Below are positions 1,206 to 2,374 of a stretch of DNA of 64,000 bases, in pieces. Location of the stretch: assembly GCA_951406725.2 (NCBI GenBank), contig OX597829.1, positions 25,172,001 to 25,236,000 of the forward strand, given 5' to 3'. A model generated the notes under the pieces. The model was not told where the DNA came from and did no database searches. It saw only the letters and a program-made list of their open reading frames with translations. The stretch's first letter is position 1. Each line of letters begins with the position of its first letter. The stretch is from Octopus vulgaris (taxonomy: Eukaryota). Position numbers and translations under genes: made by a program.

Positions 1206-1730
1206 GGTTAAAAAATGTATAATAAAATGTGCATATATAAGTTTGTGCTTAGCTTTATTTGTATGGCAGATTTTCTATGACTAGATACTCATTCCCATTG
1301 CCAACTCTTACCCAGTTCTTAGTAAGGTAATATTTTTCGATGAAAAGGATATGGTGATAAAACAAAACTAATATTTGAAATTAATTGTTGTTAACAACCT
1401 TATAGGTCTTTAAACCATTATTCTCATTTTCAGTGACGAAATTTTAAAAAACCATATTTATAGCACACAATATTTCAATTAGTTTGTTCTCTTGCTATCA
1501 TAATACCAGAATCTTGAAGAACATAAACTTGAGAAACCACATGTAAATGACATCAAAATAGTCAGGAATTTTAAAATTATTTGCAGTGAACTAAATCTAT
1601 TTCTTACACAAAAGAAATGAATTTATTAGAAGCAATATAATTCAAGTGATTTAATAGAACATCAGCTGCCATATCAAAGATCTGATGGTTTCCAGCTTAA
1701 TACCAATGCCATGCTATGTACATCCAATTC

Positions 1731-2178
1731 TGAAGATTAGCATGGCCCCTGCACAAGAATGACACGCAAATTCGTGAAGTGTTCCATATCTACTACTCTA
1801 AAGTCCAACCCCTCCCCAAAGTGGTAGGGTGGTATAAACGGGCAGTGTCAGAGCTACGCCGTCGGGAGTATTGGTTCCTAGTAGGGCCACCCAAGGCGGA
1901 TTGGTCTAGCACCGAGTGGTATTAGGGCCGTAGCCTGGCCAATGGGGCTCTGGTGAAAATTCCAAGAGGCGTCTGATCAGCAACCGGCGGCTTCAAGGTT
2001 GTTCTGTCCCCGCGTCTGTGGAGACTCCGCGGCAAACAGGACGTCCTGTCACTGGGGATATGCATGCAGGATATCAGGGACCGCTTGTGAATTCAATATT
2101 CCCACGAAACTTCTTCTATGAATCCTACTACAACCATGGCAATAAATACGAATACGAATGCGAATATGAATTATCTAT
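1731..2178 (+). mobile_element. Chimeric retroposon: U6 3' half + RTE/BovB-like LINE 5'UTR + short tandem tail, flanked by a candidate TSD
   Basis: Direct repeats tatgtacatccaattc (1715-1730) and tatctacatctaattc (2179-2194) match at 14/16; GC-rich body with GAGCTACGCCGTC...GTAGGGCCACCCAAGGCGGATTGGTC; AATAAA then a (TACGAA)-like repeat. Confidence 0.7.
1732..1789 (+). pseudogene. U6: U6 snRNA 3' half (about nt 46-103), retroposed fragment
   Basis: GAAGATTAGCATGGCCCCTGCACAAGAATGACACGCAAATTCGTGAAGTGTTCCATAT is 55/58 identical to the canonical metazoan U6 sequence; the 5' stem, most of the ACAGAGA box and the T-run terminator are missing. Confidence 0.95.
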
Positions 2179-2374
2179 TATCTACATCTAATTCACATCT
2201 TACTCCCTCAGCCTACCTAGTTGTGAGAATAGATACTATACTGTAGTTTGTAAATTCGTAATGAATTCAAACTGTTATATGAATAACATAGAGAGAGATG
2301 CAACTAAACAGGATAAACTTAGATCAAATAGGGTATAATAGTTAGGGAGATGGAGGAAATTCGTGTAAACTCAC

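Follow-up and report, generated by a model that had tools for sequence, protein, structure and literature searches.

A single-copy chimera joining 5'-truncated U6 snRNA to the tailless 5' end of a putative RTE-type LINE in Octopus vulgaris

The window analyzed in this study is a stretch of 64,000 nucleotides of the Octopus vulgaris genome (contig OX597829.1, positions 25,172,001 to 25,236,000 of the forward strand), which lies on C16 of the 2.8-Gb assembly across which the searches were run. Positions 1715-2194 of the window are occupied by a chimera, in which a U6 snRNA retrocopy truncated at its 5' end is joined to the first ~385 nt of a LINE, regarded here as RTE-type, without the LINE tail. 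The features of the locus are as follows:

1715..1730, + strand: left copy of the target-site duplication (14/16 identical to 2179-2194; core 1719-1730, 11/12 identical to 2183-2194)
1731, + strand: single extra base preceding the U6 part
1732..1789, + strand: U6 snRNA retrocopy, nt 46-103, 5'-truncated (Rfam and comparison with a U6 copy)
1787..1793, + strand: 7-mer identical to 2179-2185, flanking the LINE piece alone (the basis for a reading as two nested insertions, see below)
1790..1792, + strand: three extra junction bases, the same as the first three of the LINE, probably a duplication or an untemplated addition
1793..2117, + strand: complete 5' UTR of an abundant LINE, putatively RTE-type, from the 5' start of the family
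2118..2177, + strand: first 20 codons of the LINE APE-RT ORF, with AATAAA (2141) and TACGAA repeats inside
2178..2185, + strand: doubled last seven bases of the LINE, overlapping the right repeat at its start and matching LINE-internal TATCTAC
2179..2194, + strand: right copy of the target-site duplication (core 2183-2194)

The U6 part scored 55.6 bits against RF00026 in Rfam (cut-off 44) and differed from a genomic U6 copy (L032) at three of the 58 positions. Two of the mismatches were of the CpG type by eye, and a single T of the U tail is kept, all in agreement with a sequence-only reading made before this analysis. The same reading had proposed the 16-bp direct repeat bracketing the unit, and this proposal held up: of 3000 randomly chosen pairs of window positions, 2 equalled the boundary-anchored score of the repeat, and none did so in two controls of 1500 pairs each, which kept the real left flank and the real right flank, respectively. 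The target-site duplication encloses both the U6 and LINE parts, whereas the competing 7-mer encloses the LINE piece alone. The U6 part diverged at 3/58 positions, the LINE piece at 24/335 (7.2%) when compared with the majority base per column in 54 other copies, and the repeat core at 1/12, suggesting that the parts of the chimera are about equal in age. Neither the U6 upstream promoter nor the LINE tail is present.

The body downstream of U6 (1790-2178) corresponds to the start of a ~3.4-kb LINE. An assembly search with 1732-2180 gave 1854 candidates, and in the best 40, which were scored, every match except the window itself began at query positions 53-73, past the U6 part. The 5' copies L006, L007, and L010 extend into an APE-like frame, and L092 is a 3.37-kb element with an RT domain (PF00078, RVT_1; E 5e-31) and a short-repeat tail. 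The LINE ORF opens with an ATG at family position 322, which is 2118 in the window, and its start reads MNPTTTMAINTNTN. The body had been described as ending in AATAAA and TACGAA-like repeats. Both are present in the sequence; however, they are in-frame codons at the start of the LINE ORF (encoding AINTNTN) and therefore make no tail, and we rejected their interpretation as a polyadenylation signal or a tail.

The parent LINE agrees with the RTE pattern in its length of ~3-3.5 kb, short 5' UTR, single APE-RT frame, short tandem-repeat tail, and bipartite derivatives. From this architecture and these derivatives, which are reported for the RTE, Ingi, Vingi, and R2 clades (PMC5786205), we call it RTE-type, a putative assignment that bears out the earlier view of U6 joined to an RTE-type 5' end. 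The APE motifs were read by eye in broken frames, and Pfam gave no match for two short N-terminal pieces of the LINE. In the Atlas, the RT matched RVT_1 alone, one cluster having DUF6451 in 16% of its members.

The 5' start of the family is sharp to ~3 nt, with 36/54 support at the first C and ~90% within three bases, and the window copy opens at this very start behind the three extra bases. The window matches family positions 1-363 alone. The LINE homology ends at 2177 with no tail beyond, and the 3' tail of the family found no match anywhere in the whole window, as had been suspected from the absence of a visible LINE tail. Among the 69 non-redundant 5'-complete copies read (window included), 44 comprise the 5' UTR or 5' part plus the tail, 12 have an inverted tail upstream, four continue into the ORF, and nine, including the window, are tailless. 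The copies are decayed descendants of a few masters. Most of them share a GGAAC-UUCG-GUUCC hairpin further on (window 1850-1915).

The exact pattern of the U6|LINE junction matched once in 2.8 Gb, and in a DNA search spanning the junction the window alone covered both parts (best 40 of 595 candidates); since the junction and copy searches score the best candidates, these counts are lower bounds and old decayed siblings could escape. U6 lies upstream of one of the 69 5'-complete LINE copies, namely the window itself, and of none of the other 68. Likewise, none of the 148 other U6 3' ends read was followed by this LINE family. The chimera is thus single-copy and has left no detectable daughter copies; a one-off chimera was among the outcomes that the earlier reading had named as counting against its own interpretation.

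Two of the origins first considered for the locus were a U6-derived SINE and a U6-targeting LINE. Given the single junction and the 68 copies free of U6, it is neither, and both candidates were rejected, the latter also on the 148 U6 ends. We regard it as highly improbable that the chimera belongs to an undescribed U6-headed SINE family or a LINE targeting U6 genes. Such a family would have a precedent in the U1/U2-headed SINEU (PMC4494074), an octopus repeat table includes undescribed 'U' and 'U-L1' SINE classes (PMC13282606), and old decayed siblings are what best-candidate scoring could overlook. However, apart from the counts above, the tail for re-mobilisation is absent, and the two U6 chimeras found in a second RTE-like family differ in their junctions. 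No Keno-like preference for snRNA genes was seen from the side of the LINE (0/68) or of U6 (0/148). The chimera resembles SINEU in having an snRNA-derived head on a retroposon body; the published families are multicopy, headed by U1/U2, and end in poly(A) (Kojima, 2015; PMC4494074), whereas the window chimera is single-copy, U6-headed, and tailless, with neither a shared multicopy head-body junction nor a LINE-recognised tail.

An exact pattern search found 381 U6 3' ends in the assembly. The sample of 148 ends other than the window was not random, as it consisted of the best Rfam and BLAST matches together with most of the first 100 of the 381 pattern matches, and it included 13 source loci of the partner library and four near-identical duplicates. 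A retroposon partner was present within 30 nt of the U6 3' end in 118 of the 148. In 49 of these 118 chimeras, U6 is joined to the 5' start of the partner, which is one of four SINE kinds with A/B-box heads in 48 cases and a second RTE-like family in one. ARAGORN called no tRNA in seven SINE-chimera loci, and we therefore term these heads A/B-box-bearing from sequence only. The peculiarities of the window were found among the 118 as well: a single T in 12, a 5'-truncated U6 in 22, and the same three bases past the T run in 19. In the SINE-A chimeras, the T run was followed by A alone at 4 of 28 junctions, the rest having further letters (in three perhaps leader only); six of the 34 rows in the junction table were tails and were excluded.

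Full U6 and a complete A/B-box SINE lie within one repeat in L074 (17/18), L076 (15/15), and L136 (14/14). A single repeat of 14-18 bp encloses three of ten SINE-B chimeras and none of the nine SINE-A chimeras tested, and the chimeras with short tails have a repeat outside microsatellites in 2 of 33. A 22-bp 'repeat' at L088 turned out to be a neighbouring SINE tail and was left out of the count. The second RTE-like family (1038 candidates) supplied two chimeras with full-length U6 at its 5' start and with differing junctions, and these are independent (L139/L225, C1:179.10 Mb; L230, C18:2.05 Mb). By eye, L230 is flanked by a 10/12 repeat. L253 was rejected as a third case, as it contains no U6. 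The 30 of 148 ends without a library partner were mostly gene-like, inverted pairs, or next to decayed partners.

At the other end of the LINE piece, the final seven bases occur twice, the second copy extending into the right repeat, the start of which matches LINE-internal TATCTAC. We infer that this match (2178..2185) is the microhomology used for priming. Complete 5' starts joined to an inverted tail in a twin-priming-like arrangement were seen in 12 of the 69 copies (L003, L005, L011, L012, L016, L021, L022, L023, L027, L148, L268, and L273). Their 5' pieces stop at family positions 332-372, and 11 of the 12 have a flanking repeat of at least 7 bp; the repeats of five score at least 8, compared with 8 of 420 swapped flanks. 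Of the eight tailless copies besides the window, L025 has a 9-bp repeat and the other seven have none scoring at least 8; with a repeat in one of eight, most of these copies may be later deletions. Altogether, internal priming near the first RTE codons appears to recur at other loci. Internal priming through microhomology is known in twin priming and in tailless retrocopies (PMC4476161), and for RTEs a dependence of priming on short RNA repeats has been proposed (PMC6007223). The first codons of the LINE are a repeat-like stretch and could be linked to such repeat-dependent priming.

We consider it probable that a single TPRT event produced the chimera, with priming within the LINE RNA, copying to its 5' end, and a jump to U6. 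The LINE endonuclease would have nicked the target, and the nicked strand would have annealed to codons 19-20 of the LINE RNA, rather than to its tail, by a microhomology of 3-7 nt. One re-priming slip would have doubled the seven bases. The enzyme would then have copied to the 5' end of the RNA, added or re-copied three bases, and jumped onto the 3' end of U6 RNA, where copying would have halted at nt 46 and the end would have been joined to the target. This proposed course is in line with each of the odd features of the window being seen again at other loci. For the R2 reverse transcriptase in vitro, a template jump is described as following, and needing, untemplated base addition, and the same source raises the possibility that template jumping is not needed in vivo, ascribing L1 chimeras to ligation beforehand (PMC8857657). 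Counted against a single event are the 7-mer around the LINE alone and the few repeats at the other tailless copies, the SINE-A chimeras, and the short-tail chimeras.

The 7-mer is central to a second explanation, which we find unlikely: a partnerless U6 copy would have been inserted first with the 16-bp repeat, and a tailless LINE piece would have followed into its 3' junction with a repeat of 7 bp, perhaps after the same particle had cut again. Untemplated addition would then not be needed to account for the single T and the three extra bases. The 7-mer at 2179-2185 recurs perfectly at 1787-1793, and the repeats of the LINE family are often 7-13 bp. On the other hand, a second insertion within ~7 bp is required, the end of U6 followed by the own start of the family gives the 7-mer in any case, and both the one-T ends (12/118) and the three bases (19/118) are found in other chimeras. 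Moreover, no clear partnerless U6 retrocopy flanked by a repeat was seen by eye among the 30 unpartnered ends of the 148.

The third origin named in the sequence-only reading, in which RtcB joins U6 bearing a 2',3'-cyclic phosphate to a 5'-OH LINE RNA and the fused RNA is copied once from a priming site within the LINE, fits the locus poorly, and we judge it less likely still than two nested insertions. Ligation by RtcB is the demonstrated route for human U6/L1, in which a 5'-OH is required and 4-8 T are joined precisely; triphosphate ends are reported as unused (0/26 full-length products) (PMC6789731). In addition, some RTEs are predicted to have self-cleaving ribozymes at the 5' end that give 5'-OH (PMC5786205), the 5' start of the present family is sharp, SINE RNA excised from longer transcripts could give 5'-OH ends, and 85 of the 118 chimeras carry 4-8 T, a range that also counts against the template jump. 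However, U6 in the window ends in one T and is followed by three extra bases at the junction, instead of 4-8 T and none. Furthermore, 48 chimeras are at the starts of A/B-box SINEs, the RNAs of which presumably start with a triphosphate.

Rfam detected no ribozyme in the LINE 5' UTR of the window or of copy L147, and in the second RTE-like family it gave twister-P3 alone, with an E of 2.8 and far from the 5' end. Folding in the ribozyme search gave z of -0.41 and +1.27. The first 55 nt of the LINE (window 1793-1850), which have no Rfam match, show an HDV/twister-like layout without the catalytic bases; twister and HDV layouts were tried by eye, and each lacks conserved bases. At what we take, by HDV numbering, to be the position of the expected catalytic C, T was found in 54 of 54 copies. 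Perere-3 of Schistosoma is headed by a twister variant (PMC8501958), and its motif had no match by eye in the LINE start.

Chimeras with U6 are known from L2/Mon-1 in platypus, L2, RTEX-2, and AnolisSINE2 in Anolis, and RTE_Mdo and RTESINE1 in opossum (Doucet et al., 2015; PMC4476161). In those as in the window, U6 lies upstream in sense and is often 5'-truncated, the machinery is non-L1, and each copy is a separate event, attributed to template switching. In contrast, the partners described there are short LINE 3' pieces rather than a tailless LINE 5' end, and the window belongs to an invertebrate-type genome. The human U6/L1 chimeras likewise have the U6 3' end head-to-tail with a LINE in one target-site duplication (Moldovan et al., 2019; PMC6789731). 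They differ in having 4-8 T precisely on a 5'-OH and usually a 5'-truncated L1, whereas in the window a single T and three extra bases precede a complete 5' start. Each human chimera is described as unique, without propagation (PMC11838501). As the LINE 3' end and tail are missing at the primed end, we regard the window as a variant of the classical U6/LINE chimera.

The LINE family itself resembles the bipartite non-autonomous RTEs (Kojima, 2018; PMC5786205) in that 44 of the 69 copies are 5' UTR plus tail; unlike these, the window copy has no tail half. Addition of a small-RNA head to a bipartite element by a template switch has been proposed as the birth of a SINE (PMC5786205), and U6 is described as having no internal promoter (PMC4494074). 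With the tail half missing and no promoter inside U6, the window chimera is no SINE founder. Twin priming and 'tailless' retropseudogenes share internal RNA priming through microhomology with the nicked target (PMC4476161); in the window, the priming is placed by inference at the LINE's own first codons, and U6 is added on. In the open-access literature searched, we found neither a case of U6 fused to the 5' end of an RTE that lacks its tail nor any such chimera in cephalopods.

The locus is a dead single-copy fossil, of value for what it indicates about the formation of U6/LINE chimeras; the genome-wide U6 pattern is of more interest than the locus. Work on human points to RtcB ligation prior to copying and an older model to template switching, and with at least 381 U6 3' ends both can be tested by junction statistics outside mammals. 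Tentatively, and with somewhat more doubt than confidence, we suggest that the locus could be the least common visible outcome of something that LINE reverse transcriptases do throughout this genome: having copied an RNA completely, they would leave its 5' end, even that of a triphosphate-ended Pol III SINE RNA, and jump end-to-end onto U6 without RtcB. In the same view, the first 330-375 nt of RTE RNA would act as a second end that can be primed and is retained within the particle. If RtcB-independent jumping is true, template jumping in vivo would be documented by hundreds of U6 chimeras. The internal end that recurs at the first RTE codons is relevant to the origin of bipartite RTEs and new SINEs, and a second primable end, if true, would explain why RTEs repeatedly spawn bipartite 5'-plus-tail derivatives and SINEs.

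Several further arrangements of U6 were observed across the genome. The classical form is represented by L217, in which U6 is joined to a 5'-truncated LINE RT fragment with 37% protein identity to the family of the window, and serial chimeras, U6-U6-tail and U6-U6-piece, occur among L105, L171, and L217. In 35 of 89 U6 ends (e.g., L090, L082, L137, and L031), U6 is joined to tails of 45-60 nt, which are of four related kinds. These tails have nearly fixed starts, 3-5 nt ahead of a GC-rich stem, and are often in (TA)n; the start is a candidate stall or cleavage point. A segmental tandem duplication at C1:132.42-132.53 Mb (L123, L124, L126, and L128) has one U6-tail chimera every 18-26 kb. Head-to-head inverted U6 pairs lie in palindromes of 250-720 bp (L087, L173, L211, L065, L214, and L222), of which L087, L173, and L211 have a common gene-like 3' flank; the pairs may represent a foldback family derived from U6 genes. 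Finally, a tandem array of approximately seven U6 genes with a spacing of 1.0-1.4 kb and a variant 5' stem was found at C1:139.42 Mb (L039-L043 and L129-L135).
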